Shown here piece by piece: positions 16,399-39,953 of a DNA stretch of 64,000 bases. Source of the DNA: Candidatus Atabeyarchaeum deiterrae (lineage in GTDB: Archaea > Asgardarchaeota > Atabeyarchaeia > Atabeyarchaeales > Atabeyarchaeaceae); assembly GCA_037310415.1 (NCBI GenBank), contig CP147780.1, positions 1,120,001 through 1,184,000 of the forward strand, in the 5' to 3' direction. How positions within the stretch are numbered: position 1 is the first letter of the stretch; every line of letters begins with the position of its first letter. The translations under genes were made by a program, and so were the position numbers. Below the pieces are notes generated by a model, which was given only the letters and a program-made list of their open reading frames with translations, was not told where the DNA came from and did no database searches.

Positions 16399-17586
16399 TC
16401 ACCTTGTGTAGATATGCACATAGGCATACTGTCCTGTTGCCCCAACATTGTGGGTCAGTCCCATTTCAGCCTTCGGAACTTGTCTTCCTTGATCGGCTTC
16501 TCCACGGAGTTGTTTAGTGATCTCGCCAGCCATGCTTACACCTGTTGCGCCGATTGGATGTCCCTTTGCTTTGAGCCCGCCATCAACGTTAGTTGGTATT
16601 CTTCCGCCTACGTAGCATTGGTCTTCTTCCACCAGTTTTCCACCTTCGCCTTTCTTCGCAAACCCAAGATCTTCTAGCGCCATAATCTCGGCTATTGTAA
16701 AGCAATCGTGAACATCTGCTACGTTGATGTCCTTTAACTCAGCCTTGGCCATCTTGAAAGCTTGTCTTCCAGCTTCTACAGCGGAATTGACTCCGACGTA
16801 ACTTGGCTTAGCGGCAAAGTATTCACCCTCACTTGCACATCCAAGACCGGTTAGCCACACTGGTGTATCAGATATCTTCTTGGCCATGTCGGCTGAAGCC
16901 ATGATAACAGCGGCAGCTCCATCAGTAATCAAAGAACAATCGTAGAGTTTCAGAGGAGACGCTATCACTCTGGACTTCATGACTTCATCGAGTGTGACAG
17001 CTTTCTGCATGTGAGCGTATGGATTCATGGCGCCGTACTTGTGGCTTTTGACGGCAACTTTCGCCATTTGTTCCTCAGTTGTTCCGAATTGATTCATGTG
17101 TCTTGTCGCCATGAGAGCGTAGTATGATGGGAACGTCGTGCCCCAAAAGGCAAACTCCCATTGAGCATCTCCGCCTCGTCCGAGAGCCTCGACAGCCTTA
17201 CCTGTTGGCACTTCATTCATCTTCTCGTAACCCAGCACCATGACTACGTCAGCCATACCTGAAACGATGGTTGTATAAGCGACCCTGATTGCAGCACTGC
17301 CAGTTGCACATGCAGCCTCGACTCTCATCGACCCCTGTGGATTCAACCCAACATAGTCAGCGGCTGGAGCACCAGGGGCAAGTTGACCCAGCAAAAGCTC
17401 GGCGCCAGCGACTCCTATCACTGAGTACTGAATGTCCTTCGGCGTTAATCCACTGTCATCGAAAGCTTTCTTGGTTGCCTCGAAGCAAAGTTCACGGGAT
17501 GAAGCATCCATTCTCCTACCGAACTTCGATTGACCAACACCGACAATTGCGACCTTCTTTTCACCTTTAGCCAATACTTGGTTCAC
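16399..17586 (-). CDS. Acetyl-CoA acetyltransferase (archaeal/SCP2-type thiolase)
   Basis: EAACATG, HDCF, GHPIGATG, HNVG. Confidence 0.95.
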   Translation of the reverse strand: MNQVLAKGEKKVAIVGVGQSKFGRRMDASSRELCFEATKKAFDDSGLTPKDIQYSVIGVAGAELLLGQLAPGAPAADYVGLNPQGSMRVEAACATGSAAIRVAYTTIVSGMADVVMVLGYEKMNEVPTGKAVEALGRGGDAQWEFAFWGTTFPSYYALMATRHMNQFGTTEEQMAKVAVKSHKYGAMNPYAHMQKAVTLDEVMKSRVIASPLKLYDCSLITDGAAAVIMASADMAKKISDTPVWLTGLGCASEGEYFAAKPSYVGVNSAVEAGRQAFKMAKAELKDINVADVHDCFTIAEIMALEDLGFAKKGEGGKLVEEDQCYVGGRIPTNVDGGLKAKGHPIGATGVSMAGEITKQLRGEADQGRQVPKAEMGLTHNVGATGQYAYVHIYTR

Positions 17587-17916
17587 CTACCACAAAGATT
17601 TCATACTGCTAGAGGAGAACCAGAACCCACGTATATATTTCTTGATATTTCGAAAAGAGCAGAATCGATCAGCTATTCAGAAGATGATTGACCTATGACC
17701 CTCTGTCATTTCTTGTCTCTTCAGCGCGAAATTCTTCTTCCAACCACGTTTCTTCACCATATCAACATTCTGACCGCACGAAAAAATGCACTTAGAAGGC
17801 TCGAGCCTGCCCGTCAAGACTTAAATACAGATACAACGCTCTAAGTTTCAATTGGAATGGAAGGCACATACCGATACTAAGTCAGATTGCTGAATGGTAA
17901 GTTGGTGAATATAGTT

Positions 17917-18786
17917 ATGAAAGCTAATGAGGTTAGGAAGGTTGCCGTTCTTGGCGCTGGTCTAATGGGCGCTGGCATTGTCGAAGTGTGCGCCCAATCT
18001 AGGATCAACGTGTCTATGCGGGATATTAAGGATGAGTTTATTGAAAAAGGATTCAAAGGAATTAAGGACTTCTTGGAGAAAGGAGTGGCAAAAGGAAAGA
18101 TAAAGCGCGAGGAAGCTGATGGCACAATCTCAAGAATAGAAACAACGATTGATATTGCCAAAGCCGTCAGCGGTGCAGATGTCGTCATTGAGGCAATCCC
18201 AGAAGAAATGAAACTGAAAAAGGAAGTCTACAAAGAAGTATCGAAGTATACATCTGAAAATACAATAGTGGCTTCCAACACGTCGACACTCAGTGTGTCG
18301 GAGATGGCTACTGCTGTTAATCATCCAGAGAACTTCCTCGGATTGCACTTCTTTAATCCTGCGCCTTTGATGAGGCTAGTCGAAGTCATCAGGGGAAAGA
18401 AGACCGTGGATGAGACGGTAACATTCGGAAAGGAGTTTGCAGCAAGACTCGGAAAGACACCTGTGGTCTGTATTGACAGTCCTGGCTTCATCGCGAACAG
18501 GATCGCCATACCTTTAATGAACGAAGCTATCATAGCATTGGACGAGGGAATAGCAACAAAGGAAGATATTGACACAGCCATGAAGCTCGGATACAACCAT
18601 CCGATGGGTCCATTTGAACTAGCGGATCTGATTGGCTTGGACACGCTTCTGCACTCGATGAAAGCTGTCAATGACAGATTGAGGTCGCCACGATGGAAAC
18701 CAGCGGCGTTACTTGAGAAAATGGTGAAAGAAGGGAGACTGGGGCGCAAGACCGGTAAAGGATTCTACGATTATCAGCAAAAATAG
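17917..18786 (+). CDS. 3-hydroxyacyl-CoA dehydrogenase
   Basis: GAGLMG, SNTS, HFFNP, PMGPFELADLIGLD. Confidence 0.95.
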   Translation: MKANEVRKVAVLGAGLMGAGIVEVCAQSRINVSMRDIKDEFIEKGFKGIKDFLEKGVAKGKIKREEADGTISRIETTIDIAKAVSGADVVIEAIPEEMKLKKEVYKEVSKYTSENTIVASNTSTLSVSEMATAVNHPENFLGLHFFNPAPLMRLVEVIRGKKTVDETVTFGKEFAARLGKTPVVCIDSPGFIANRIAIPLMNEAIIALDEGIATKEDIDTAMKLGYNHPMGPFELADLIGLDTLLHSMKAVNDRLRSPRWKPAALLEKMVKEGRLGRKTGKGFYDYQQK

Positions 18787-18822
18787 ACAATGAAGGTCCA
18801 AAAAAGAAAAGGGAGGTTTGAT

Positions 18823-19623
18823 TTGAGATTGTCCTCGAAAACCTACAGCAACATACTCTTCGAGAAGAAGGAAGGCATTGCCAGACTAACAGTCAATAGA
18901 CCTAACGTCTACAACGCCTTAAACCCTGACACTATGAAAGAGATCGCGGACGCCATTGCTGATGTTGGGAAGGATAACTCTGTGAATGTTCTCGTAATCA
19001 CTGGCGCAGGGGAGAAAGCATTCATTGCTGGCGCTGACATAAGCACATTCCCAACTCTCACTCCGAAGCAAGCAAGATCCTTTGCCAAGTTAGGGCAGCT
19101 AGAGATTACTAGAGCGTTGGAATCACTTGGCAAACCCGTGATAGCAGCTGTCAATGGCGTGGCAATGGGGGGAGGATGCGAAATCGTCCTAGCATGTGAT
19201 TTCGTAATAGCGTCAGAGAATGCGAAATTTGGACAACCTGAAATAAACTTGGCCATCCTGCCAGGGTGGGGAGGAACCCAAAGACTGCCAAGGGTCGTCG
19301 GAACGTTCAAAGCCAAAGAACTGTGCATGCTTGGTGAACCAATCGACGCCAAAGAAGCAGAGAGAATCGGAATAGTGTACAAGGTTGTTCCATCAGCAAA
19401 GCTAAATGAAGTCGTGGACGAGTTAGCCAAAAAACTAATGGCCAAAAGTTCATTTGCATTGCGCCTAGCGAAACAGGCCGTGGATAAGGCACTTGATGTG
19501 GACATTGACACTGGACTAGCATTTGAAAGTGACCAGTTCGCAGCAGCATTTACGTCAGAAGACCATATCGAGGGAGCAAAGGCATTCCTGGAGAAGAGGA
19601 AGCCGACATTCAAAGGAAAGTAA
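18823..19623 (+). CDS. Enoyl-CoA hydratase (crotonase)
   Basis: [26 protein letters not shown]; TTG start chosen after GGAGG. Confidence 0.93.
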
Positions 19624-20948: not shown

Positions 20949-22061
20949 TTACTTCCTATATGCCCCATATTTCTTTGCAGTATCAATCATGGCTTTGATG
21001 TTCTCAAGTTTCGCATCTACAGGAACAGAGCACCCAGAACTGAGAATGAAACCTCCTCCCTCGCCAACCTCTTTGATCAGTCTTATGCAGTACTTCTCTA
21101 CTTCGTTGGTTGTTCCCAAACGGAAGAATGGTGCTGGAACGTCACCCATAATGCACATGTGGTCACCCAAGACTTTCTTAGCTTTGAAGATGTCAGTCTG
21201 ACCATCCAGTTCAAGTGTGCATGATGCCTTGGGTAGCTGGAGCAGGTATTCCAGCATAAGTGTCCAGTTGCAATCAAAGTGAAGAAGCGTATGGAAGCCA
21301 TCTTTGTGAAGATTCTCAACTATCTTCTTGAGCGAAGGTAGAGTGAGTTGCTCAAACATCTTCGGTGAAACGAAAGAACATGAAGTTCTCTGTGCTCCAA
21401 CGAAGACAGTCTTCACTCCGGAAACCAGACAAGTGCTCTTAGCCAGACCTATTTCTTCATTGATTACGGCATTGCTAGCCTTGATGATCTTGTCCGGGTA
21501 ACGATGCATGTCAAGCAGGATTTTCTGGACAGACCTGTAGAACGAGAAGAGCTCTACTGGCACAAAACAAAGTGCACCGCAGCTAATCGGTATGCCCAGT
21601 TTGTCCCAAGTTGTTCTAAGACTCTTTATGACGTTTCCAAGACCAAGTATTCTAGCGGCACTGTCTTTGTTTCCAACCCTATTCAGAAGTTCAAGGAGAG
21701 ACGCCGTGAACCCTTTCTTGACCATTAGATCGTAGTCATCCAGCTTCATTATCTCTTCGTCACAGACTTGAAGCAAAGCGTCATCTGGAAGATCTCTCCC
21801 TGGTGCTTTCGACTTAAGTGAGAATGCCGACATTGTAATTATCTGAGGCGGAAAGATTTCGTCCCACCCTCCAAGCTTCTCAAAGGTTACTTGAATGGCC
21901 TTGTTCGCAACCTCATCATTGAAGATGAAGTCGCTCATCTTGACTCCCGCTATCTTAGGTGCAACAAAGTCGATGAGAGGAACGACCGGAACTCTGTCAG
22001 GAACCTTAAGACTCTTGACTGCCTCAATTCTCTCTCTAGGAGACATAGCTTCCTCAGTCAT
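20949..22061 (-). CDS. URO-D family (MtaA-like) methyltransferase
   Basis: PDRVPV, LHFD, ILSSGC; abuts a corrinoid protein gene. Confidence 0.87.
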   Translation of the reverse strand: MTEEAMSPRERIEAVKSLKVPDRVPVVPLIDFVAPKIAGVKMSDFIFNDEVANKAIQVTFEKLGGWDEIFPPQIITMSAFSLKSKAPGRDLPDDALLQVCDEEIMKLDDYDLMVKKGFTASLLELLNRVGNKDSAARILGLGNVIKSLRTTWDKLGIPISCGALCFVPVELFSFYRSVQKILLDMHRYPDKIIKASNAVINEEIGLAKSTCLVSGVKTVFVGAQRTSCSFVSPKMFEQLTLPSLKKIVENLHKDGFHTLLHFDCNWTLMLEYLLQLPKASCTLELDGQTDIFKAKKVLGDHMCIMGDVPAPFFRLGTTNEVEKYCIRLIKEVGEGGGFILSSGCSVPVDAKLENIKAMIDTAKKYGAYRK

Positions 22062-22685
22062 TTACTTCTCACTCCATTCTATGGCAAGTTTAACTGCATC
22101 TACAGTTGTCTTACCCAACGCATCGGCACCGACGAACTTGACTACGCTATCATTTGTGGTGCCTCCCCCAATCATTATCTTCACTTTGCTCTTCAGACCA
22201 GCAATCTTCAATTCTTCGACTGTCTCTTTCATTGCATCCCAAGCTATGGTCAACAGACCGGACATGGCAACTATGTTGGATCCCGTTCCTTTCACCTTGT
22301 CCACGAATGCCTTCGGTGGGACATCAACTCCCAGGTCATAAACTTCAAACCCGTTCATTCTGAGAAGCATGGCGACCAGATTCTTACCCATATCGTGAAT
22401 GTCCCCTTGTACTGTGCCAAGAACCACTTTTCCGCGGATTTGTGCCTTGCGTCCCTTCAATTTGGGTGCAATCATGTCAGTGATTTTCTGGAAAATATCT
22501 GCTGCAAGCACCAATTGGCTCAGAAAGTACTCCATCGCTTCATATCGTTGCCCAACTACATCGAGTCCCTTCCTGCACAGATCAACGATCTTGAGCGGGT
22601 CCTCTCCTTTCTGAAGCATTTCTCTTACAAGTTTTGTTGCTGCTTCTTCATCAAGGTCAGCAATTGCCTTGACAAGTTCTTCCAT
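22062..22685 (-). CDS. Cobalamin-binding corrinoid protein (MtaC/MtbC-like)
   Basis: GDIHDMGKN B12 motif, SGLL, IGGG; GGAGG RBS before ATG 22685. Confidence 0.93.
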   Translation of the reverse strand: MEELVKAIADLDEEAATKLVREMLQKGEDPLKIVDLCRKGLDVVGQRYEAMEYFLSQLVLAADIFQKITDMIAPKLKGRKAQIRGKVVLGTVQGDIHDMGKNLVAMLLRMNGFEVYDLGVDVPPKAFVDKVKGTGSNIVAMSGLLTIAWDAMKETVEELKIAGLKSKVKIMIGGGTTNDSVVKFVGADALGKTTVDAVKLAIEWSEK

Positions 22686-22809
22686 TACTATTCCTCCGCA
22701 AGCCGGGTTCAAGTTTATTCTGTTAAGACTGCCATCCGTTTTCAAGAGCGATAAGAGAAAGGGAGAGACCCACTTCAGTTATTTGTAGTACAAGCCAAAA
22801 CCGTACAGT

Positions 22810-23319
22810 CTAAGGCTTGACAGATACATCGTAGCTGTTCTTTGAGAAGAGTGTTTCGATACTCTTCCGAGTCTTCGGTCCAGGTTTCGCGTCTGGTACT
22901 CCAAGCGCAAGAATTCCGCCGACGACCTTGTCCTTCGGTATGCCCAATGCTCCTTTCACTTGTCCTTCGTCGAACGCTCCAATAAAGACGCCGCCGAGAC
23001 CAACCTCGTAGGCCGCAAGTAGAATGTGTGTCAAAGCGATTGTTGTGTCGATCAGGTGCCAGGTTGGCGATTTGTCTGGGTCAGATACTCCAACCACAAG
23101 TAACGGGGCTTTCGCAAGATAGGGCTGAGCTGCCGCCTTAGAGATTATTCTCCGTCTTTCGGGGTCGTCAACAAGTACGAAGCGATATGGTTGCCAGTTC
23201 ACGGCGGAGGGTGCATCTTGCGCTGCTTTCATCAAGATATCCAGTTTTGTCTTGTCGACAGGTTGGTCCTTCCACTTTCTCACACTCCTCCTAGACCTTA
23301 TAACATCCATCACGCCCAT
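22810..23319 (-). CDS. Nitroreductase family protein
   Basis: RRSVRK, APSAVNWQP, GLG..FIG. Confidence 0.92.
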   Translation of the reverse strand: MGVMDVIRSRRSVRKWKDQPVDKTKLDILMKAAQDAPSAVNWQPYRFVLVDDPERRRIISKAAAQPYLAKAPLLVVGVSDPDKSPTWHLIDTTIALTHILLAAYEVGLGGVFIGAFDEGQVKGALGIPKDKVVGGILALGVPDAKPGPKTRKSIETLFSKNSYDVSVKP

Positions 23320-25335: not shown

Positions 25336-25592
25336 GGACAGTCGCCTAGTACCACAGTTCCAGATTCTTCCTCAATATGAATGAATCAGCCTTAAATACG
25401 TTGTTTTAAACGGCTCCAGAGAAAGAAAACGTTGGGACAATCGCTACCGCAGTGGCGCATTGTTTCCCAATATGTTTATGAAGCATCTCCAAGAAATGAA
25501 TAAGTAAAGCATTAGAAAGCTAGCGGATCTTTCTCTAATCCAAGAGGAACAAGAATTCATCGATAAGTCCTTTTTCCGAGGTGCCAAGTTGT

Positions 25593-27086
25593 ATGAGTAA
25601 GAGTTTCAAGCTTTCTGGCGTCTTGCCGGCCCTAGTCACTCCTTTCAGGAAAGAGGACGAGGCGATTGACAAAGAGGCGTTCAAGACACTTATTGACTTT
25701 GTCATCGAGAAAGGAGTGACAGGAGTGGTCCCCTGTGGCACCACTGGAGAGTTCACCTCCATGTCTGAGGAGGAGAAGAAAGGCATTCTTCAAATTACCG
25801 TCGATCATGTGAATGGCAAGGTTCCAGTTGTAGCAGGAACCGGATGCGCTGCAACAAAAGAAACGATTGAGATGACAAAATTCGCCAAAGATGTCGGAGC
25901 GGACGCAGCGCTGGTCGTGACACCCTTCTACCTCAAGCCTTCGGACAGAGGAATCTACGAGCACTACAGACGGGTTGCCGATGCTGTTGACGGTTTTCCC
26001 ATTATCATGTATAACATTCCACAAGTCACGGGAGTTACCCTCGCATGGCCTTTGGTGGAGGACCTGGTTGAAATAGACAATATCGTCGGATTGAAAGACA
26101 GCAGTGGGCAGCTTCCCTACACTATGGCCGTGCTGGAGAAAGTGAGAGACAAGATCTTTGTAATGTGTGGACATGACGAGGTCGTACTTCCAGCCTTAGC
26201 TGGGGGCGCAAATGGAGTCATCTTGGCTTCAGCCAATGTCATTCCTGATATATGGCTTAGGGTTGTGAATGCGGTTAAAGACGGTAAACTCGACGAGGCC
26301 CGCAAAATCCAGATGCAGATCCAGAAATTCGCAAGAATAATCGTAGGAAGTGGAGCTGTGGGCGTCAAGGAATCACTCAAATGTATGGGGCTTGACGTAG
26401 GTGTTCCTCGGTGGCCGCTATCAGTCGGAGGGGAATTGTCGTTTGAGAACAGGGAAGAGATCAGAATAGAACTGGAGAAGCTGGGTAAGATAGAGAAGAA
26501 GGTCGTGGAATTTGAAGTTGTGCCTGGCGTTCCTCTGGAAGATAGGTTTGCAGCTGTAGACCTAACTCCCAAGGTTATCAGAGATTTCTCATTGAAAGTA
26601 GGAGAAGCACTAATTGCATCAGGTTCTGAGGTTGCTCATATCGATGTAATGATTGGCAGAAAGGATGGACCAGTAGGTGAAGCATTTGCCAAAGCCAAGG
26701 CAAACCCGGTGCCAGGACATGAAGCCCTCCTCGCGGTGTTGGAGCCGAATCTGGTTGTTAAACCATCGACGCTAATCATACCCACAGTTACAATCAAGAA
26801 CCTCAGACAAAGCCAAATGATTTTCGGGCCTGCTCAAGCTGGTGTGGCTAAAGGTGTTGCAGATTGCGTAACTGACGGAATTATTCCAAGGGGCGCCCTG
26901 GATGAACTGGCCATCATAGCCAATGTGTTTGTTCATCCGTCAGCAGTTGACAGACATCGAATATTCATAAACAACTGGAAAGCCATGAGACAAGCCATAC
27001 GGAGAGCTATAGAGGGAAGACCAACTGCAGAGGAGCTTGAGCGTGACAAGGAGGCCGCCAGGCATCCCTTCAAACACACACCTTGA
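25593..27086 (+). CDS. Fusion: DapA/NAL-family class I aldolase + formaldehyde-activating enzyme (Fae)
   Basis: N-terminal GTTGE, PFY, YNIP, GLKDS; from about 26592 VGEAL...EVAHIDVMIG..GPVG...PNL.VKP.T...FGPAQAGVAK.V.D...HPF typical of Fae; continuous frame. Confidence 0.93.
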   Translation: MSKSFKLSGVLPALVTPFRKEDEAIDKEAFKTLIDFVIEKGVTGVVPCGTTGEFTSMSEEEKKGILQITVDHVNGKVPVVAGTGCAATKETIEMTKFAKDVGADAALVVTPFYLKPSDRGIYEHYRRVADAVDGFPIIMYNIPQVTGVTLAWPLVEDLVEIDNIVGLKDSSGQLPYTMAVLEKVRDKIFVMCGHDEVVLPALAGGANGVILASANVIPDIWLRVVNAVKDGKLDEARKIQMQIQKFARIIVGSGAVGVKESLKCMGLDVGVPRWPLSVGGELSFENREEIRIELEKLGKIEKKVVEFEVVPGVPLEDRFAAVDLTPKVIRDFSLKVGEALIASGSEVAHIDVMIGRKDGPVGEAFAKAKANPVPGHEALLAVLEPNLVVKPSTLIIPTVTIKNLRQSQMIFGPAQAGVAKGVADCVTDGIIPRGALDELAIIANVFVHPSAVDRHRIFINNWKAMRQAIRRAIEGRPTAEELERDKEAARHPFKHTP

Positions 27087-27246: not shown

Positions 27247-27555
27247 TTATTCTATGAGATTCTGCTCTGCAACTTCGATTATCAGGATATGTCTTCTCGC
27301 GGGATCGGTCGTGAATTCATCCGAGAAACTAACCTCATGGGTGATCATGTTTAGCACTACATACCTTTTCTTCACTGGCGGAGCCTCAACGTAAACGACG
27401 AGGGGTTCACCCATTACTGGGATAGGCGCGAAGTAAATGTGTTTTCCTCCCTTTTCAACGTGACAAAGGAACGATGCAGCCATCGGTGAACTTACCATCA
27501 TCACGAGGTCTTCAAACCTCTTCAACTTCATGCGGAGAATCTCTTCCTCAGGCAA
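27247..27555 (-). CDS. Small conserved archaeal hypothetical protein
   Basis: 102 aa; ..FEDLV...HIYF.....IIEV pattern; GGGAAGGAG RBS. Confidence 0.65.
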   Translation of the reverse strand: MPEEEILRMKLKRFEDLVMMVSSPMAASFLCHVEKGGKHIYFAPIPVMGEPLVVYVEAPPVKKRYVVLNMITHEVSFSDEFTTDPARRHILIIEVAEQNLIE

Positions 27556-27709
27556 AACAGATCAGATCTCCTTCTCCCTTCTTCCAAAAAGATCGCGGGC
27601 AATTCGCTTAGCGCATTCGCCTAATGGATTAGGATGACACGTTCATTAACTTATCGGGTGAGGTTCTGCAATGCCTAGTTGTATAACGATGAAGCGGTCC
27701 TACTTCCCC

Positions 27710-29113
27710 TCATAGTGCTACTATTACCATTATGTCATTAACATTGGTACCAGTCGGTCCAGTGATTATTATTCCATCGCCAAGTTTCTTGAAGAACGTA
27801 TTAGAGTCATTTCGCGAGAGATAGTCAAGAGGGTCGATGCCTTTCAGCCGCGCGTTCGTTAGAATGTGGCTGTCCACGATACCACCTGCGGCATCAGTTG
27901 GTCCATCGACGCCATCGGTTCCCATTGATCCTATTACTACGCCTTCCAATCCTTCAATTGACTTTGAAGCACTCAAAGCGAGTTCTTGGTTTCTTCCCCC
28001 TCTTCCAGTTCCAAGTACGGTGACTGTGGTTTCCCCGCCCATGATCACAGCAGCTGGTTTGTTGATTGGTGATCCATGTGTTGCCAATTCTTTTGCCACC
28101 GCCGCGATGAATTTGCCGACTTCTTTGGCTTCGCCTTCAACCATCGTCGATAGTACGATGCTATTCAGGTCTAATTCGCGAGCTTTTGTGTACGCGGCGT
28201 TGCAGGCTTGCCTGCAACTACCTATGATGTAATTGTGAACATGGCTGAAGACGCTTGACTCACTCTTAGGAGTTTCAGGTATCTCCCCATTGAATCCTTT
28301 CAGTAGATGTTGTCTGGCGCTTTCTGGCATATCGTTCCAGAGGTTCCGGCGCTTCAATACTTCGATTGCGTCCTTGTATCTTGTAGAATCAGGAGCGGTA
28401 GGACCACTCGCTATCACATCAAGAGGGTCTCCAACAACATCGCTTACCACAAGTGTTACCATAGTGCAGCCTCTCGAAGTAGCCTTCTCGGCGAGTCTTC
28501 CTCCTTTGACTTGCGAGAGATGCTTCCGAACGGTATTCAATTCGTTGATGTTGGTTCCCAGCTTCTGGAGCGATCGGATGACTGTCTCAAGGTCTTCCAA
28601 AGGAACTTCATCGGGTGGGAGGCACAGGAGTGCAGATCCACCGCCGGATATCAGACATATGATCAAATCGCTTGGCCCAGCTGTATCCAGGATAGATAGA
28701 ATCCTCTTCGTCGCTTCGAGGCTATCTGAATTAGGTATAGGGTGGTTTGACTCGTGAAGCTCTATTCGCTCCGTATTGAACATGCTGCGGGTTCCACGAA
28801 GGATACTTACACATCCTTCAGAAATCATGTCTCCAAGGAGCTTCTCCATCTCTTCGGCCATAGCGCCACTAGCTTTCCCTGCTCCAACAACAAAAACTCT
28901 ACCAGACTTCTCAAGGTTGAAGGTTGCATTGCCTACTGCTAAGCTCTTTCTATTTTTGGAAAGCTTGACGCATCTGCGCACCGCTATTCTAGGATCAGAT
29001 GCCTTGACGGCCTCCTCGAGCAGTGTCAAAGCTACACTTCTGGCTTTTCTGTCAACCTCATCAAAAGCATTTCCTATCAACTCGTTGAAATTCTTCACGA
29101 GGTGGTCGACCAT
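27710..29113 (-). CDS. Glycerate 2-kinase (MOFRL/TtuD family)
   Basis: GAGKA, ISGGGSAL, RKHLSQVKGG, GGETTV, GGRNQE, TDGVDG, TGTNVND; start set at ATG 29113. Confidence 0.93.
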   Translation of the reverse strand: MVDHLVKNFNELIGNAFDEVDRKARSVALTLLEEAVKASDPRIAVRRCVKLSKNRKSLAVGNATFNLEKSGRVFVVGAGKASGAMAEEMEKLLGDMISEGCVSILRGTRSMFNTERIELHESNHPIPNSDSLEATKRILSILDTAGPSDLIICLISGGGSALLCLPPDEVPLEDLETVIRSLQKLGTNINELNTVRKHLSQVKGGRLAEKATSRGCTMVTLVVSDVVGDPLDVIASGPTAPDSTRYKDAIEVLKRRNLWNDMPESARQHLLKGFNGEIPETPKSESSVFSHVHNYIIGSCRQACNAAYTKARELDLNSIVLSTMVEGEAKEVGKFIAAVAKELATHGSPINKPAAVIMGGETTVTVLGTGRGGRNQELALSASKSIEGLEGVVIGSMGTDGVDGPTDAAGGIVDSHILTNARLKGIDPLDYLSRNDSNTFFKKLGDGIIITGPTGTNVNDIMVIVAL

Positions 29114-29125
29114 TCTTGAAAGCGC

Positions 29126-29146
29126 CTCTCTCTCTCTCTCTCTCTC
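29126..29146. repeat. (CT)10 dinucleotide microsatellite
   Basis: ctctctctctctctctctctc just upstream of the glycerate kinase ATG. Confidence 0.9.
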
Positions 29147-29236
29147 CGAAAGTAGGGTTTGGAGAGTTTCATAAGCATTACGGCGGGAAGGCCAAAGGGA
29201 AAAGGGCAAGATACTTGTCTTATGCTAGGATCTAGC

Positions 29237-30526
29237 CTAAGCCTTTTCTCTGCTGATTAGCTTCATTAGTTTGGGCATGAGTTCTGTTCCTTTTGACAGG
29301 ATTCCTAAGCTTCCTTTGGCGCATTCCCTTTCACCGAATTTTTCAGCACCATCTCCCCTGATCTTGTCACCTGCTATCAAAAGTGGAACTGGATCATCAC
29401 TATGACCTTTCAATGAACATGGAGTTGAGTGGTCAGCTGTAACACAGACGACTGAATTGGACAAATCAATTATCTTGAGCAACTTGCTGAAGAATAGAGC
29501 GTCAATCTTCTCAATTATCTCCTTTTTCAGTTTCACATCCCCGTCATGTCCAGGTTCATCAGGGCCCTTTATGTGAATGTAGAAACAATTGTGCGATCTC
29601 ATGGCCTCCTTCAGCCTAGCTATTCTCAGTTCCAGATCTGCTTGAATGTTCTTTGAAGGCGGAGGCAACTCGAAGACATCCATTCCAGAGAGTTTCCCTA
29701 TGCCTATTTCTACAGGCATGTCTGCTAGACAGGCGAATCTCACACCATATTTCTTATTGATGCTAAAGAGTTTGGGCACGTGGTCACCTGCGTCCCGCGA
29801 AAGTATGACATTTGCTGGTTTCTTGCCATCCTCAACTCGCGACTTGTTCACAGGGTGATCCTTCAAAACATTGATGCTCTTCTCTGTAAACTCATTTACT
29901 AGTTCAGCTGCAATCTTGGAAGTCTTTTTCTTGTCGAGCGGTTCACACTGCATTAATCTGCTCTCTGTGCCCGCTTTAGCTACACCAAGACCTTTAACTC
30001 GAGCATAAGCAGAGTCCGTGTTTGAGACGTTTCCTGAAAGTGGACTCTCTTCACTTCTTATGACCAGCACGCATCTATGGGCTACAGTGTTCTTGAACTC
30101 AAATGTAGCGCGATGAGATTCAAGTTTCACAGCCTCATTTATCGATTTGCTGAGGCCTTTCGCCTCATCGTTGTCTAGGTTCCTTCCTGCTCGTCTGTCG
30201 AGTATTGCGTTTCCTTTTCCGAGCGTGGCGAAGTTACATCTTAGGGCTAGATCGCCTTCGTTGATTGTGAGTCCTGAGCCGAAGGATTCTATCGGTCCTC
30301 TGCCAGAGTGATACTTGAAAGGATCGTATCCGAGTATCGAAATAACGGCCACGTCACTTTCAGGGGCGACGCCTTTCTTAACAGTATACATCAGGCCGGT
30401 ACTACCATTCTTGGCCAACTGATCCAAGTTGGGGGTGGAAGCTGCTTCGAGTGGAGTTCTTCCGCCCAGTTCTTCTACAGGGCGGTCACCCATACCATCT
30501 ATACAGACATAGAACAAATTCATCAT
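29237..30526 (-). CDS. apgM: 2,3-bisphosphoglycerate-independent phosphoglycerate mutase, archaeal type
   Basis: DGMGD, TPLEAA.TP.LD, PESD, KGPDEPGHDG, TADHSTP, HSDDPVP. Confidence 0.92.
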   Translation of the reverse strand: MMNLFYVCIDGMGDRPVEELGGRTPLEAASTPNLDQLAKNGSTGLMYTVKKGVAPESDVAVISILGYDPFKYHSGRGPIESFGSGLTINEGDLALRCNFATLGKGNAILDRRAGRNLDNDEAKGLSKSINEAVKLESHRATFEFKNTVAHRCVLVIRSEESPLSGNVSNTDSAYARVKGLGVAKAGTESRLMQCEPLDKKKTSKIAAELVNEFTEKSINVLKDHPVNKSRVEDGKKPANVILSRDAGDHVPKLFSINKKYGVRFACLADMPVEIGIGKLSGMDVFELPPPSKNIQADLELRIARLKEAMRSHNCFYIHIKGPDEPGHDGDVKLKKEIIEKIDALFFSKLLKIIDLSNSVVCVTADHSTPCSLKGHSDDPVPLLIAGDKIRGDGAEKFGERECAKGSLGILSKGTELMPKLMKLISREKA

Positions 30527-30678
30527 AAGCAGTCTGAACGCCTCCAAGACATTTCTTCAGTATCTTATGGAAAGATTGGAGCGATAATCGGGCAATTGTC
30601 ATGGCATCCTAATTGCATTTGAAGAAAGCTTTCACTTACTACTCTGAAAAACGAATATGAGTTTTGTGCAGCGCTACT

Positions 30679-32001
30679 TCACTGGTTTTTTTCGCCTAGT
30701 TTTAGGGTGAATTTGCAGTGGTCATGACCAGTACCGTAGCATTCAACTTCCCGGACGGTTGTTTCGACCCCAAGTTTAGCTTCGAATATGCCCTCAATTA
30801 GCCCTTCATCCAGCGTGCAGAGAGTGTCTCCGACATTCGGAGAATCCTTGCACTCTAGGCAATCGTTCACAACAATTGTCAATCCACTCTTATCTTCGTC
30901 TTTAACCGTTAACTTACCTAGACCGCGAGTGCTCCAATATTCAGCCAACTCAGTCACTAAGCGGCTTTGACTCTTCGACTTGAATGTGTGCCCCACGTCC
31001 AGCCCTATTTGTTTACCTACGTTTCTAAACTGTTCTCTTAGGTTTATGCCAAGGAAGTCTAGAGCATGAATTATAGACTCTATTCTGGGTGCGAATCTCA
31101 GCTGTTCTTCTCCGATATGGTTCACGAGTTTGGAAAGTTTCTCGTAGAGCTGATTCTGAGTCAGACTTATCTGAATGCGTTCAACAGGTTTGCCTGTTTC
31201 AATCTCATCGAATCTACCCTTAGCGTCGATCGCGACGCTCCACATTAACTCAAAAAACTCCTTATGAGACAAGACAAAATCCTTACTATCAGCCCACAAC
31301 GCAGCATCACGGTCTGCTGGAAGCCCAATAGAACTACCCAAAACCAGTAGAGTCACAACCTCCTTGTCATCAACCACAACGAAGCTTATGGGATTCTCAA
31401 GTTTCAAGTGCCTAACTTCAGCAAACTCCATAAACCTCTTAACGGAGCCAATGTTAGCCTTGTCAATCTCACAGATAATCCTTACCTTAGTCTTCTGCTT
31501 CTCCACAAGTTCTTCAAGGGCGTCGTCAACACCATTTAGCACAGCGAGAACAGCGCCCCGTTTCGTCGTAGCCATACAGACATTTTTTCTGGGTTCTTGG
31601 AAGATTTCAACAAAAACGTTGTAAATTCGCTGCGCACTGTGAACTAACCTGAATGTCGGCTGTGTCTCGACTTTTCCAGGAGGAATAGTCTTCCAAGTTT
31701 CTAACACAATTTCCTTGCTTCGTTCTATCTTTGATATCTTGCTTTTCTGTTCTTCTATCAGTATATCAAATCCTTTGTTCAGGGCGACTGCGACAAACCT
31801 CATTGGCTTCTCAAGAGTCCTCTTCACAAGATTCCTCTGCTCGAGTTTCTCAAGTGTACGATAAGCATCCATCCTATCGAATTTCAGGGAATCAGCAACA
31901 GCGCTGGCCTTACTGGGCCCTAATCTATTTAATTCAAGGTATATCTGCGCCTCTTTCTCTGTTAGACCCGTTTCCACCAGTTCCTTTATGATTGATTCCA
32001 T
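30679..32001 (-). CDS. TrmB-family transcriptional regulator with C-terminal V4R domain
   Basis: GLTEKEAQIY..L HTH; PLD-like effector domain (FVVVDDKE); V4R GLG, DCLEC, C...G.IEG, E.EC...G..HC. Confidence 0.88.
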   Translation of the reverse strand: MESIIKELVETGLTEKEAQIYLELNRLGPSKASAVADSLKFDRMDAYRTLEKLEQRNLVKRTLEKPMRFVAVALNKGFDILIEEQKSKISKIERSKEIVLETWKTIPPGKVETQPTFRLVHSAQRIYNVFVEIFQEPRKNVCMATTKRGAVLAVLNGVDDALEELVEKQKTKVRIICEIDKANIGSVKRFMEFAEVRHLKLENPISFVVVDDKEVVTLLVLGSSIGLPADRDAALWADSKDFVLSHKEFFELMWSVAIDAKGRFDEIETGKPVERIQISLTQNQLYEKLSKLVNHIGEEQLRFAPRIESIIHALDFLGINLREQFRNVGKQIGLDVGHTFKSKSQSRLVTELAEYWSTRGLGKLTVKDEDKSGLTIVVNDCLECKDSPNVGDTLCTLDEGLIEGIFEAKLGVETTVREVECYGTGHDHCKFTLKLGEKNQ

Positions 32002-33626: not shown

Positions 33627-34541
33627 TTACTCTCTTTTGATTCCGTAGTACTCGTAGAATCCCCCTTTACTTCCAACTTTGACTCTGGGGTTTCCCAGAA
33701 AACCAGATTTTACAAGCTTCTTAAGAGTCAGAGGTGGAGCATAGTGAGGGTCACCCAATTCGGCGAACAAATAGCTGGATATGTGTAGAAGCGTGTCAAG
33801 CCCGATGAAATCAGACAGTTCAAAAGGTCCCATCGGCCAATTGAAAGCCATTTTCGACATGGCATCGATTTCCTTGATATTGGCCACTCCTTGCTCGAAG
33901 AGTCTCACCGCTTCGATGATCCAACTCGCTATGTATCTGGTTGTGAAGAAACCTGGTCCATCATTTGCAGGGATAGGAGTCTTTCCTAGTTTCTTGCTTA
34001 GATCCATCACTATGCCGTAAGTCTCGTCTGATGTGAGCGCTCCTCTTACAATTTCAATTAGCTTCATTACTGGAGGTGGATTGAACCAGTGCATCCCGAT
34101 TACTTTGTCAGGTCTATTTGTTACTGATGCTATGTCTGTCACCATTATTCCTGACGTGTTTGATGCGAGAATTGTCTGTGCTGGACACAGTCCGTCGAGC
34201 TGTTTGAAGATTCTCTTTTTGAGCTCGAGATCCTCCGGCGTAGCTTCGACTACGAGATCTGTGTCTTTCACAGCCTCTCTCATGTCTGTTGTGGTCTTGA
34301 TGCTTGAGAATGTGGCTTCGAGTTTCTCCTTGGTTATTTTTCCTTTGTCGAGTGCCCTGCTTAGGCTTAATTTGATCTTTTCAAGCCCCTTGGTTACAAG
34401 CTCGTTTGTCAAGTCGGTCATGTATACCTTATAGCCTTCCCTGGCGCATACCTCTACAATTCCAGCACCCATTATTCCTGCGCCCAGAACTGTGATCTTC
34501 TTCAAGTCTTCAAGTCTCAATTCCAAATCAACCTTCCACAA
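33627..34541 (-). CDS. 3-hydroxyacyl-CoA dehydrogenase
   Basis: GAGIMG, SNTS, HWFNP, PMGPFELSDFIGLD. Confidence 0.93.
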   Translation of the reverse strand: MWKVDLELRLEDLKKITVLGAGIMGAGIVEVCAREGYKVYMTDLTNELVTKGLEKIKLSLSRALDKGKITKEKLEATFSSIKTTTDMREAVKDTDLVVEATPEDLELKKRIFKQLDGLCPAQTILASNTSGIMVTDIASVTNRPDKVIGMHWFNPPPVMKLIEIVRGALTSDETYGIVMDLSKKLGKTPIPANDGPGFFTTRYIASWIIEAVRLFEQGVANIKEIDAMSKMAFNWPMGPFELSDFIGLDTLLHISSYLFAELGDPHYAPPLTLKKLVKSGFLGNPRVKVGSKGGFYEYYGIKRE

Positions 34542-34666
34542 TCGACTCGCATCTTACACTGAAACTTCGCACACGACGGGGTTACTTCTTGACGATTAAT
34601 GGTCACGGGTCCCTCCTATTTAAGGAATGACAAGAACATCAGTTGCAAGCGACAACGAAATGCCTA

Positions 34667-35464
34667 CTATGCAATTCCTACTACTCTCCCGATCTGCTTC
34701 TCATCGATTCCAGCAATTATTTCATGCAGCCAGTCAGTTGCTTCTTGGTATTTCTTCTGCAAATCGTTTTCATCCTTGACGAAGTAAAGATGCATTAGCT
34801 TCTCGATAATGTCAGAAGGAAGCTCATAATGAATGTAGCGCATCACAAAGTCATGGTGGAAAGGATTGTACTTCATTCTAAGAATCTCAGTCAGAGTGCT
34901 CAACGTGATTCTAAAATAGTAGTCAAAGGCTTCCAGATAGTTACTTCTGTTAATCTCCTTCGGCACGTAATTGTTGAAGAGATCGACCCTTGCTTTGAGT
35001 CTCTCCAGTCTTTCGCCCAGTATCTTCAGTAATGCATCCTTGTTCAAAGTCGGAATATTGATCTGGTCGGATTTATTGAAGTGGAATACAACCTTGCCAT
35101 GTATCTGTGGCTCGAGGAACTTGTCGGGGCAACTTCTCTGTAGAATGGCAAGATCGATAAGGAGATACTCACTCACTTCCTTCAATCTATAGAATGCTTG
35201 GTAGACTCCTGGTCCATGCAAAAAAGGTGGCACATACTTGCGTTCTATAGGTGACAAGGATTCTAGGACACTTTCGACAACAAGAAAAGTATCCTCTGCC
35301 TTCTTGTCATCAACCACCAAATACAGATCGATATCAGACCACTTGTCCACACGCCCAAAGGCTGCTGCGCCACCTTCCCAAAATGCCTGCACGAATTTGA
35401 GTGGTTCTACAGCATCAACAAGGGTTTTGATTATTGTCTCCCGGCTCAACTTTTCTCCATTCAT
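34667..35464 (-). CDS. Pol-beta-superfamily nucleotidyltransferase (antibiotic NTase-like)
   Basis: GG.A.G..DKWSDID, third Asp IDL, helical C-terminal domain. Confidence 0.75.
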   Translation of the reverse strand: MNGEKLSRETIIKTLVDAVEPLKFVQAFWEGGAAAFGRVDKWSDIDLYLVVDDKKAEDTFLVVESVLESLSPIERKYVPPFLHGPGVYQAFYRLKEVSEYLLIDLAILQRSCPDKFLEPQIHGKVVFHFNKSDQINIPTLNKDALLKILGERLERLKARVDLFNNYVPKEINRSNYLEAFDYYFRITLSTLTEILRMKYNPFHHDFVMRYIHYELPSDIIEKLMHLYFVKDENDLQKKYQEATDWLHEIIAGIDEKQIGRVVGIA

Positions 35465-35685
35465 AGCTGTTCACCCAAAGACAGTTTCACTTTCTCCTTG
35501 CCAAAATCACTCTTATTAACATTCAAAGCTCCGTCTGAATAGCAGATTCGAGACATTAGTGAAGCTAATAACGGTCACATCTTAATAATACTAGACAAGT
35601 AGAAGAAGGCGAACTGCAAGAAATTCGATTATACTTTTCGAGAGTTAGAACAGTAGTTGTTGGCGAGATGAGGAAGGGATAAAAA

Positions 35686-36609
35686 ATGACGGATTATAAG
35701 GAATTAGTCTACGAAAAGAAAAACATGACTGTTAGGGTAACGATAAACCGACCCGAAGTCTATAACGCTTACAGTACAAACACCTTGAAGGAACTGGCAC
35801 AAGCTTTTGATGGCATTTCTGACGATGACTCGGTTGGAGTTGCAGTCCTAACTGGGGCAGGTGAGAGAGCCTTCTGCACAGGCGGAGATGTTAAAGAGTA
35901 CGCCAACGTCTATCAGAAGGCACCTCATCGCTACTGGAATTATATGGTGACTTTCGACAAAGCTGTGTCAAGCATAAAAAACTGTAGGGTTCCAGTTATA
36001 GCAAGAATCAATGGCATTGCAGCGGGCGGGGGCAATGAACTCCATCAGGCATGTGATCTCTCAATAGCCTCTGAGAACTCAAAGTTTCTACAAGTAGGTG
36101 TTAGAGTCGGAAGCGTAGCAGCTGGAGGAGCAACCCAGTGGCTTCCGATCTTAATTGGGGACCGAAGAGCAAGGTGGATGCTGTATACAACTGATGAGGT
36201 CGACGCGAAAACTGCGGAACAATGGGGGCTAGTCAATAAGGTTGTCCCCTACAAAGAGCTTGATGCAGCCGTCGAGGATGTTTGCAGCAAAATACTCAAC
36301 AAATTCCCAGAATGCTTGAGGTACACGAAGGTGCAAACGAACTTCTGGAAAGATCTGGCCTGGAACAATACTGTTCAACACGCTAGAGACTGGCTTGCAT
36401 TGCACATGGGATCGGCTGAAGCTATCGAAGGAATGCAGGCGTTCGTCGAGAAAAGGCCAGCAAACTACATGAAGCTCAGAGAGAAGCTCGCCAAAGGAGA
36501 GCCTGCCGAGTTTCCATGGGGTTCGCTAACATCATCATGTCCGAAGTGCGGCGCAAAGAATCTGCCTCAGCAATTCAAGTTCTGTGGTGTATGCGGTGGG
36601 AAACTGTAA
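35686..36609 (+). CDS. Crotonase-family ring-opening hydrolase (Oah/BamA-like) with C-terminal zinc ribbon
   Basis: FCTGGDVKEY...Y..YM, GGGNE, Q.G...GS.A.GGAT..LP; CPKCG...FCGVCG tail. Confidence 0.78.
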   Translation: MTDYKELVYEKKNMTVRVTINRPEVYNAYSTNTLKELAQAFDGISDDDSVGVAVLTGAGERAFCTGGDVKEYANVYQKAPHRYWNYMVTFDKAVSSIKNCRVPVIARINGIAAGGGNELHQACDLSIASENSKFLQVGVRVGSVAAGGATQWLPILIGDRRARWMLYTTDEVDAKTAEQWGLVNKVVPYKELDAAVEDVCSKILNKFPECLRYTKVQTNFWKDLAWNNTVQHARDWLALHMGSAEAIEGMQAFVEKRPANYMKLREKLAKGEPAEFPWGSLTSSCPKCGAKNLPQQFKFCGVCGGKL

Positions 36610-38411: not shown

Positions 38412-39953
38412 TCAGTAAGTTGGTCTATCTGGACCTTTTTCGGGAAAGACTTCTTTCACACAAGATTCATGAATATTCTCTGTTTGCTGCAAAAGAGTTT
38501 CGCCCTTACAACTGTACGAAGGTGCCAAAGGAAGCATATTGTAGTGGCTGGCAAGAGCTTGTTGATAGGCGCCCACATCAAGTACCATGAGAACATCACC
38601 TTTGTCGGTTCTCGGTAGCATCCTAGGTCCCGTTCGGTCGCGTCCCCATGCAAACACATCCCCGGAGTCACAGGCTATTCCACCTATATTGTACCAGTCC
38701 CTAAGGGGTTCACTTATCTTTGACGCGTTGAGCACCTCAAACCACTGCTGCAAGAGCACAATATCATGCGCATCCGTCATAGCACTTCCGTCTGTGATGA
38801 TCCACTTGTTTGACCCCTTCAACGATCCTTTGTACTTATTTTGCACGTCAAACACATCTGTTACGGACAGCAGGAGCGCAGTGGAGTTAGCTGTCAGCCA
38901 CCTTCCGGGCTCGATACATAACGTAGGGTAGTCATACCCTTTCTCTTCACAGTTCTCCCTGAATGCAGTAATTACTTTCAATCCGTACTGTTCGACATTA
39001 TAGTTTGACCAGAACTCTCCATACGCCTTCTTATCCAGCGGTCGGGTCTTAACGTACTTGACTGCAATTCCCCCACCTATGTTCACCTGATCAATGTGAA
39101 CGTTCAGTCTTCTCTCTAGTTCAATTAGGTTTGATAACAAGACAGGGACCTCGCCCCTTGTTTTGCTATTGCTTCGAGTTCCTGCGACTGCATTTATGTC
39201 AGATATCTGTGATCCTATGTGGCAATGTAGCTGGCGTATCTTCATCGGACTGTTGAAGTCTCTGATCTCTTTGACAACCGTCTCGAGTTGACCGAGAGGG
39301 ACGCCAAACCTTGAGTAGCCAGCTCCTGTTGCCAAATCCTCGGACGTCTTAGGTGTAATGCCAGGGTTGACTCGAACACCGACACTCAGATCTCCTCCCA
39401 TTCTCTGCGCGATCTTGGCCGCGAATCTAACCTCCTCAATCGAGGACAAGTTTACAATTACATCATACCCCTCTCTGGATTGGAGACCAAATGCGGCTTC
39501 GATCAGCGACTCTTTGTATGGGCGCTGAGCGTAATGTTTAGAGACACCGTTACAGACAATGCGGATAAGAGGATTCTTGCCACCCTTCTCCTTGAGTACG
39601 TTCAGTGCGAAGAAGAGTTCATGAATGTTAGTTACTTCAATGCCGTAACCTTGACCAACAATGCTGCCGACTACTGCATGAAGGAAGTTCGCTTTAGTTG
39701 CATAGAATGGATGAAATTTCCCGGGATAAGTCTTGAATGATTCAACGAGACGCTTAGCGTTCCTTACAATCTGGTCAAGATCGACGATGTAACATCTGGT
39801 ACGATGCTCATGAGCAAAGTCAAGTACATTCGAACCACCAAAAGCTAAAGTTCCACTGGAGGTGACTCGGCAATTATCACTCAGATCCTGTTTGCCAACG
39901 TAATTCGACGGGTTGACACTGCAAACTGGATCAATGGAAATACCTCGCGCCAA
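38412..39953 (-). CDS. PLP fold-III decarboxylase (diaminopimelate decarboxylase-like)
   Basis: FYATKAN, RVNP, HCHIGSQ, NIGGG, EPGR, CDSGD, GAY. Confidence 0.85.
   Translation of the reverse strand: MARGISIDPVCSVNPSNYVGKQDLSDNCRVTSSGTLAFGGSNVLDFAHEHRTRCYIVDLDQIVRNAKRLVESFKTYPGKFHPFYATKANFLHAVVGSIVGQGYGIEVTNIHELFFALNVLKEKGGKNPLIRIVCNGVSKHYAQRPYKESLIEAAFGLQSREGYDVIVNLSSIEEVRFAAKIAQRMGGDLSVGVRVNPGITPKTSEDLATGAGYSRFGVPLGQLETVVKEIRDFNSPMKIRQLHCHIGSQISDINAVAGTRSNSKTRGEVPVLLSNLIELERRLNVHIDQVNIGGGIAVKYVKTRPLDKKAYGEFWSNYNVEQYGLKVITAFRENCEEKGYDYPTLCIEPGRWLTANSTALLLSVTDVFDVQNKYKGSLKGSNKWIITDGSAMTDAHDIVLLQQWFEVLNASKISEPLRDWYNIGGIACDSGDVFAWGRDRTGPRMLPRTDKGDVLMVLDVGAYQQALASHYNMLPLAPSYSCKGETLLQQTENIHESCVKEVFPEKGPDRPTY

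Follow-up and report, generated by a model that had tools for sequence, protein, structure and literature searches.

An aldolase-Fae fusion of Asgard archaea and Bathyarchaeia, and its possible place in homoserine and threonine metabolism

Introduction

Formaldehyde-activating enzyme (Fae) interconverts formaldehyde plus tetrahydromethanopterin (H4MPT) and methylene-H4MPT, and formaldehyde is, to our knowledge, the only aldehyde on which it acts. In methanogens it is found joined to a second enzyme in the Fae-Hps fusion (NF009833). Here we analyze a fusion gene of another kind, called the fusion in what follows, which lies in a stretch of 64,000 nucleotides from Candidatus Atabeyarchaeum deiterrae (contig CP147780.1, positions 1,120,001 to 1,184,000). 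This whole stretch is the window, and its position numbers are used below. The fusion resembles Fae-Hps in that, in an archaeon with H4MPT, a Fae domain is joined to an aldolase-type barrel that would handle a C-C bond to formaldehyde. The arrangement is, however, a different one. In Fae-Hps the Fae domain is N-terminal and its partner is a metal-dependent Hps of the orotidine-monophosphate-decarboxylase type acting on ribulose 5-phosphate, whereas in the fusion a C-terminal Fae follows a Schiff-base barrel of the DapA family. The NF009833 profile matched only the Fae part of the fusion (profile positions 2-161 of 392), with 174.7 bits against a cut-off of 274. A true Fae-Hps is also encoded in the same genome, as a frame of 420 amino acids (aa).

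The chemistry of DapA-family barrels consists of the reaction of a pyruvate enamine with an aldehyde. In DapA itself (TIGR00674), also known as dihydrodipicolinate synthase (DHDPS), the carboxylate of aspartate semialdehyde is bound by Arg138 (E. coli numbering). The fusion has in common with the E. coli (1dhp) and M. jannaschii (2yxg) enzymes the barrel, the Schiff-base lysine, the tyrosine and threonine residues and the GTTGE motif, and it differs from them in the absence of Arg138, in altered pocket positions, in its separate clade and in the attached Fae. A reaction like the one that we propose below is catalyzed by PanB (PF02548), which transfers the hydroxymethyl group of a methylene-pterin to C3 of a 2-oxoacid and gives a 4-hydroxy-2-oxoacid. 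PanB has an unrelated fold, is metal-dependent and uses folate, its usual substrates being methylene-folate and 2-oxoisovalerate. Finally, in the designed homoserine cycle promiscuous enzymes condense pyruvate and formaldehyde to 4-hydroxy-2-oxobutanoate (HOB) in vivo and then transaminate it to homoserine, and HOB is there regarded as a non-native metabolite (review PMC8879981). The cycle employs E. coli RhmA, a class II enzyme that takes free formaldehyde, and then a HOB aminotransferase, homoserine kinase and threonine synthase, whereas the fusion would be a dedicated natural class I enzyme drawing its C1 unit from H4MPT.

The fusion protein and its domains

A first-pass annotation, made by a model from the DNA letters alone, had described a single frame coding for a DapA/NAL-type barrel and a complete Fae domain. 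This description is borne out by the frame itself and by Pfam and NCBIfam (Table 1), and the motifs GTTGE, PFY, YNIPQVT, GLKDS and VAHID are all present in the translation. The frame has an alternative GTG start at 25581. The span of the barrel was recovered again in a genome-level profile search, and its closest solved structure is M. jannaschii DHDPS 2yxg (E 2e-56). The C-terminal part scored 209.5 bits with the Fae model TIGR03126 (NCBIfam cut-off 118.05), and it could be aligned end to end and gap-free with M. extorquens Fae 1y5y (E 1.7e-38). Two measurements had to be corrected: the Fae domain is complete, as first stated, but it begins nearer 26598 than 26592, and the linker has about 45 residues instead of about 35. 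Both the sequence and the length of the linker vary among relatives, the alignment being gapped and poorly conserved there. From these features we infer a bifunctional protein in which an N-terminal Schiff-base pyruvate aldolase would be followed by an intact Fae.

Table 1. Positions in the window of the fusion, its domains and key codons, and of two further genes discussed in the text.
Feature	Position	Strand	Basis
Aldolase-Fae fusion gene, 497 aa	25593..27086	+	Open frame without internal stop; PF00701 + PF08714
DHDPS/NAL-family class I aldolase barrel, residues 7-290	25611..26462	+	PF00701, E 6.8e-82
Codon of Val145, position of E. coli DapA Arg138	26025..26027	+	Alignment to 2yxg (there Arg of YNVPSRT)
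Codon of Lys168, Schiff-base lysine (GLKDS)	26094..26096	+	Lys in 130/132 fusion proteins
Inter-domain linker, about 45 residues (291-335)	26463..26597	+	Stretch between the PF00701 and PF08714 matches
Fae domain, residues 336-493	26598..27071	+	PF08714, E 7.7e-61, profile positions 1-158 of 159
Protein A, uncharacterised predicted TIM-barrel protein, 312 aa	23420..24358	-	Conserved fusion partner, two genes upstream here
Threonine-synthase homologue, 500 aa	36861..38363	+	TIGR00260, 197-198 bits against a cut-off of 167

Fae is a pentamer and DapA-type barrels are dimers or tetramers. The natural fusion joins a former of the first kind of oligomer to one of the second, and it is possible that an unusual large assembly results. 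Several genomes carry tandem pairs of fusion genes (G005:C33:27430-30305, G007:C65:11305-14187, G052:C135:11103-14004, and others in f6, f8 and f20; f denotes families, g17 and g25 genera, G genomes and L loci). In these pairs one copy covers the full profile (1-496) and the other stops near 470, without the C-terminal end of Fae, which suggests a hetero-oligomer. In the protein structure database, the whole sequence of M. extorquens Fae occurs at residues 126-287 of chain B of 8ub7, named Avd, which is probably an engineered fusion with Fae as a pentameric scaffold.

A DapA-type barrel without the DapA pocket

The arginine of the YNVPSRT motif had been reported as missing from the segment YNIPQVT, and by alignment to 2yxg its place is taken by Val145. 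The change is general: in 132 fusion proteins this column holds Cys in 106, Val in 19, Leu and Ile in 2 each, Thr and Tyr in 1 each, and Arg in none. Besides the Schiff-base lysine, Thr50, Thr51, Tyr113 and Tyr140 are conserved in about 130 of the 132. Further changes with respect to the Arg-bearing DapA relatives are N to L114, S to L211 and N to G254, together with a GG insertion at 279-280 of the fusion barrels. A phylogeny of the aldolase domain had been proposed as a check. When 141 family members were placed in a tree, the fusion barrels grouped in a single clade (SH-aLRT 98). The branches closest to this clade consist of standalone proteins that also lack the arginine, and this group as a whole stands apart from the Arg-bearing proteins. 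The fusion barrel thus appears to descend from the DapA lineage and to have lost the residues that bind aspartate semialdehyde.

The genome itself, which is complete in a single contig of 2.76 Mb, gave no match for dapB (TIGR00036) or for the Asd-type domain (PF02774), and contains a lysA-like gene below the cut-off only. Therefore, neither the substrate of DapA nor the next enzyme would be found there. Taken with the missing arginine, this makes the early statement that the fusion is "not a lysine enzyme", and not a DapA, well supported. The database name 4-hydroxy-tetrahydrodipicolinate synthase is explained by the TIGR00674 score of the barrel, which at 247.5 bits lies above the NCBIfam equivalog cut-off of 206.15.

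Two other genes of the genome touch on this subject. A second DapA-family gene, standalone and of 295 aa, is located outside the window (G000:C1:2117222-2118079; locus L002 1480-2367, minus strand) next to a gene for a xylose-isomerase-like TIM barrel. It keeps the Arg of YNxPxRxG and groups with the Arg-bearing DapA proteins, although the genome has neither dapB nor asd. Within the window (38412-39953, minus strand), a 513-aa gene of the ornithine/diaminopimelate/arginine decarboxylase fold is convergent with the threonine-synthase homologue of Table 1. It reached 202.9 bits against a lysA cut-off of 297.9, in a genome without the diaminopimelate pathway.

Distribution and earlier descriptions

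PF00701 and PF08714 occur together in more than 120 database clusters, and the distinct fusion clusters at 50% identity number about 15. Orthologues are 84-89% identical in Atabeyarchaeia-like archaea and 62-65% identical in Bathyarchaeia. A scan with the aldolase motifs was matched by 586 species genomes, the best 80 of which are 1 Asgard archaeon and 79 Bathyarchaeia. In a sample of 301 genomes from the same phylum, about 150 have a match of fusion strength (E < 1e-100; this number and the totals for homoserine dehydrogenase given below are hand counts), and, apart from matches adjoining the end of a contig, all those listed are full length. The fusion-bearing families are f1, f6, f8, f9, f12, f15, f17, f20, f23 and f27, some of them with tandem pairs. 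With so many two-domain clusters and phylum genomes, the fusion is no assembly artefact. A search for the two-domain architecture had been advised from the start, and it is found to be widespread in Asgard archaea and Bathyarchaeia, not confined to this assembly.

The architecture was also suspected to be undescribed, and no description of an aldolase-Fae fusion was found in the literature searched. The genome paper on Atabeyarchaeia contains Fae-Hps as its sole related mention and does not mention the fusion gene, and a survey of Bathyarchaeia counts 'fae' without remarking on the fusion. We conclude that the fusion is genuine and conserved, a bifunctional enzyme that bears the wrong name in databases and has gone unstudied. 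Two distant fusion clusters have the Schiff-base lysine replaced, by Ala in P0250 and by Leu in P0254, so some lineages would carry aldolase-dead barrels.

Partner proteins A and B

When the neighbouring gene families were clustered de novo in 84 fusion loci, dominated by Bathyarchaeia, two families stood beside the fusion: A (about 312 aa) in 9 loci and B (about 430 aa) in 57, never both, which adds up to 66 of 84. In a Bathyarchaeon, the gene immediately preceding the fusion codes for a protein 66% identical to the protein A of our window. In the phylum of the source organism, 20 loci from 10 families were compared; A or B is close to the fusion in 15 of them, and in 13 it lies directly upstream on the same strand. 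This is the position of B in f9 (6/6), f23 and f27, and of A in f12, f8 and f17, while A is divergent in f20 and two genes upstream in f1. The family f6 has tandem fusion genes and B elsewhere in the genome. According to the family tallies, every sampled fusion-bearing family has A or B, and A is nearly confined to such families. B comprises at least 8000 sequence clusters. Among the matches listed, the homologues of A and B are all archaeal wherever the source names an organism.

Neither protein has a match in Pfam or NCBIfam. They have a local motif in common (hhalign probability 61%, E 8e-5), which is suggestive of homology between A and B. The AF2 model of protein A is a TIM barrel (pLDDT 79) whose best fold matches are the class II aldolases YdjI and FBA (Foldseek E 4e-9, TM 0.45-0.5; VIA Z 15.5), as compared with Z 13-14 for unrelated TIM barrels and 13.2 for the U32 peptidase Mk0906. 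An Atlas feature search with A returned clusters with PF01136 in 23-36%, which is a lead only. For protein B the AF2 model is unusable (pLDDT 37.7) and the Atlas search gave no match. Prediction of a complex between the fusion and protein A returned a score of 0.00, run without controls, and counts neither for nor against binding.

Links to homoserine, threonine and H4MPT

No homoserine dehydrogenase and no ThrB were found in the complete genome, in which two threonine synthase homologues score above the cut-off. This combination is part of a wider pattern. Homoserine dehydrogenase occurs in about 23 of 150 fusion-bearing genomes of the phylum and in about 93 of the 151 others. Among fusion-bearing families it is found in 3/76 genomes of f6, 0/19 of f12, 0/11 of f27, 0/3 of f20 and 0/3 of f1; among those without the fusion, most of which have it, in 4/4 of f2, 5/5 of f7, 5/6 of f18, 21/29 of f4 and 17/21 of f21, and also in 4/4 genomes of g17, a fusion-less genus of f9. 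ThrB is present in only 17 of the 301 genomes and in no fusion-bearing family. In f6, Asd was detected in 8 of 41 genomes and threonine synthase homologues in 41 of 41. Since the fusion-bearing genomes mostly have no enzymes for making homoserine and keep threonine synthase, as seen in our genome and in f6, synthesis is favoured over cleavage.

Gene neighbourhoods point to the same area of metabolism. In f6, B has the 500-aa form of threonine synthase at a distance of 1-2.5 kb in at least 15 genomes, which belong to at least 10 genera, and a threonine synthase gene is 3.4 kb from the fusion in a Bathyarchaeon (L006). The homologue in our window could be a downstream user of the fusion pathway, the link being weak there because the two genes are 10 kb apart.

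The families f4 and f21 have B and no fusion. In the seven loci examined (L133-L139, from genomes G003, G132, G044, G258, G129, G138 and G210), a class I/II aminotransferase follows B in 7/7, and homoserine dehydrogenase and aldehyde:ferredoxin oxidoreductase (AOR) come next in 5/7. In L135 these two genes are found beyond an intervening pair of genes, and in L134 they were not found. The homoserine dehydrogenase of this operon scores 424 bits with NF004912 (cut-off 373). AOR is usually an enzyme of aldehyde oxidation. No Asd-type domain was detected in any of the five B-operon genomes of f4 and f21 searched, so AOR may interconvert aspartate and its semialdehyde. It may stand in for aspartate-semialdehyde dehydrogenase, which would itself be an undescribed route.

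The first-pass annotation had also proposed comparing the fusion with the H4MPT genes, and the two are found together. Our genome has Mtd, an H4MPT enzyme (PF01993, E 7e-117), and the H4MPT marker Mch is present in 40 of 41 genomes of the fusion-bearing f6, and in 0/25 genomes of f4 and 0/21 of f21, both without the fusion. B therefore stands beside the aldolase-Fae fusion in H4MPT users and beside a homoserine module in archaea without H4MPT, and the compound common to both settings would be homoserine or HOB. Taken as a whole, the gene neighbourhoods and the distribution among genomes connect the system with homoserine and threonine metabolism, and on circumstantial grounds they speak for synthesis.

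Proposed function and alternatives

The chemistries of the barrel and of Fae, when combined, have HOB as their simplest common product. In the reading that we favour, the two domains together would convert pyruvate and methylene-H4MPT into HOB. HOB would then be turned into homoserine or its phosphate, by way of a transamination for which no linked gene was found, and protein A, or alternatively B, would do a neighbouring step, possibly that of ThrB elsewhere. Threonine synthase would lead to threonine, and the whole would be an aspartate-independent entry to the homoserine-family amino acids. That the fusion moves C1 units between methylene-H4MPT and C3 of pyruvate, mainly towards HOB and feeding homoserine and threonine, is in our opinion a serious possibility, which we put forward tentatively. 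Its substrates, its direction and the role of A and B are inferred, whereas the two-domain architecture, the preserved catalytic residues, the lost DapA determinants, the linkage to A and B and the distribution patterns are observed. We are more hesitant about the wider proposal that many Asgard archaea and Bathyarchaeia make their homoserine-family amino acids from pyruvate and H4MPT-bound C1 units, not from aspartate, with A and B supplying the ThrB or homoserine dehydrogenase step; this may be so, but it is doubtful. In the first-pass annotation, cleavage of HOB made from homoserine or tetronates was the direction named first, and synthesis of HOB the second. The connection with HOB and homoserine has held, circumstantially, through the B operon with its homoserine dehydrogenase and aminotransferase and through the anticorrelation of homoserine dehydrogenase with the fusion, and of the two directions it is synthesis that is now favoured.

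Several observations weigh against this reading. The release of formaldehyde from methylene-H4MPT is thermodynamically uphill, and the aldol step would have to drive it. The fusion operons have no linked aminotransferase. Protein A is not co-oriented with the fusion in our window, and its matches to aldolases barely exceed those to generic TIM barrels, so that no function follows from them. The fusion and homoserine dehydrogenase occur together in 16 of 44 fusion-bearing genomes of f9 (hand count), and also in f8 and f15; the one is thus no strict replacement of the other. Several families have none of the fusion, A/B and ThrB, which may reflect auxotrophy in these peptide-fermenting archaea, and our genome is also without ArgC-type and lysine-pathway genes. 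Moreover, the genomes are related, and the counts therefore overstate their independence.

The alternative that survives best is catabolic, and we consider it unlikely. The barrel would cleave HOB, or some other 2-oxo-4-hydroxy acid that ends in CH2OH, into pyruvate and formaldehyde, and Fae would immediately capture this toxic aldehyde as methylene-H4MPT. The substrate would come from A or B, which might, for instance, dehydrate a C4 sugar acid. The trapping of released formaldehyde has a precedent in Fae-Hps, whose model NF009833 partially matches the fusion, and the Fae reaction favours condensation. The context is fermentative, with beta-oxidation-like genes flanking the fusion here and in Bathyarchaeia, and the B operon of f4 and f21 includes AOR. 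Cleavage has to contend, however, with the absence of homoserine dehydrogenase from our genome and from most fusion-bearing families, because of which homoserine derived from aspartate cannot be the source of HOB. Furthermore, the fusion has no linked gene for a sugar-acid dehydratase or transporter, and the gene that recurs beside B is that of threonine synthase, whose reaction is biosynthetic and irreversible.

We find it improbable that the carbon skeleton is another one, either because the acceptor is a different 2-oxoacid (such as 2-oxoisovalerate, giving ketopantoate in place of PanB) or because the aldehyde is not formaldehyde. What suggests it is that our genome has an archaeal phosphopantothenate synthetase and no PanB. 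The pyruvate-binding residues of the DapA family are nevertheless all conserved, Fae is only known with formaldehyde, and most lineages with the fusion have PanB as well. A PanB substitute as the general function was rejected, as PanB accompanies the fusion in f6 (67/76), f12 (18/19), f27 (11/11), g10 (20/22) and g31 (24/27). PanB was not found in our complete genome or in the sampled genomes of f1, f2, f15, f19 and the genera g17 and g25. In the surroundings of PanB itself, neither A nor B was present within 8 kb in any of 18 archaeal loci. The phosphopantothenate synthetase gene of our genome is at C1:994178-994714, with a GHMP-kinase match beside it.

There is very little probability that one half of the protein, the Fae pentamer or the barrel, acts as a scaffold for oligomerisation or as a regulatory module and that the two activities are unrelated. 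The lost lysine of the divergent clusters P0250 and P0254 and the use of Fae as a scaffold in the engineered chain 8ub7 would agree with it; the fusion, like about 130 of 132 relatives, has however kept both sets of catalytic residues, conservation is strong in either domain, and the fusion goes together with the H4MPT marker. A genuine DapA with Fae attached, in spite of the TIGR00674 score, the DHDPS enzymes among the best solved relatives and the database name, is hardly credible with Arg138 missing in 132/132 relatives and a complete genome that has no dapB, no Asd and lysA only below the cut-off.

Implications

The pathway implied by HOB synthesis would be new to natural metabolism, even if both domain families are already known and Fae-Hps is a precedent for a Fae fusion. 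If the proposal is true, the fusion would be a dedicated natural enzyme for a reaction that engineers have built from promiscuous enzymes. It would link the H4MPT-dependent methyl branch of the archaeal Wood-Ljungdahl pathway directly to amino-acid synthesis, as the equivalent in nature of the synthetic homoserine cycle. A gap would be filled in f6, and perhaps in further genomes of Asgard archaea and Bathyarchaeia. It would also correct a systematic misannotation, since hundreds of database entries are named DapA, and provide a first functional handle on A and B, two very large, conserved and unannotated families. In addition, we think that such an enzyme would be of interest as a catalyst for C1 bioconversion.

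Other genes around the fusion

Upstream of A on the minus strand (20949-23319), the window contains a nitroreductase-family gene, a corrinoid (B12-binding) protein and a URO-D/MtaA-like methyltransferase, a group that looks like a methyl-transfer module. In G012 the fusion again has a nitroreductase-like gene nearby, and there are weak instances in two f9 loci. Convergent with the fusion (27247-32001, minus strand) are an open reading frame of 102 aa, a DUF4147+MOFRL glycerate-2-kinase-like gene, an ApgM-type phosphoglycerate mutase and a TrmB-V4R regulator. The unit of regulator, ApgM and glycerate-kinase-like gene was rejected as part of the system, as it stands beside the fusion only in our own family f1 (G012). 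A TrmI-like methyltransferase lies downstream of the fusion in 58 Bathyarchaeia loci, and it was likewise set aside; its homologue is elsewhere in our genome, so this is probably housekeeping synteny. At 16399-19623 and 33627-36609, the window carries beta-oxidation-like sets (thiolase, two 3-hydroxyacyl-CoA dehydrogenases and two enoyl-CoA hydratases), and in the Bathyarchaeia loci L006 and L008 the genes near the fusion include enoyl-CoA hydratase, 3-hydroxyacyl-CoA dehydrogenase, acyl-CoA dehydrogenase, electron-transfer flavoprotein and AOR.

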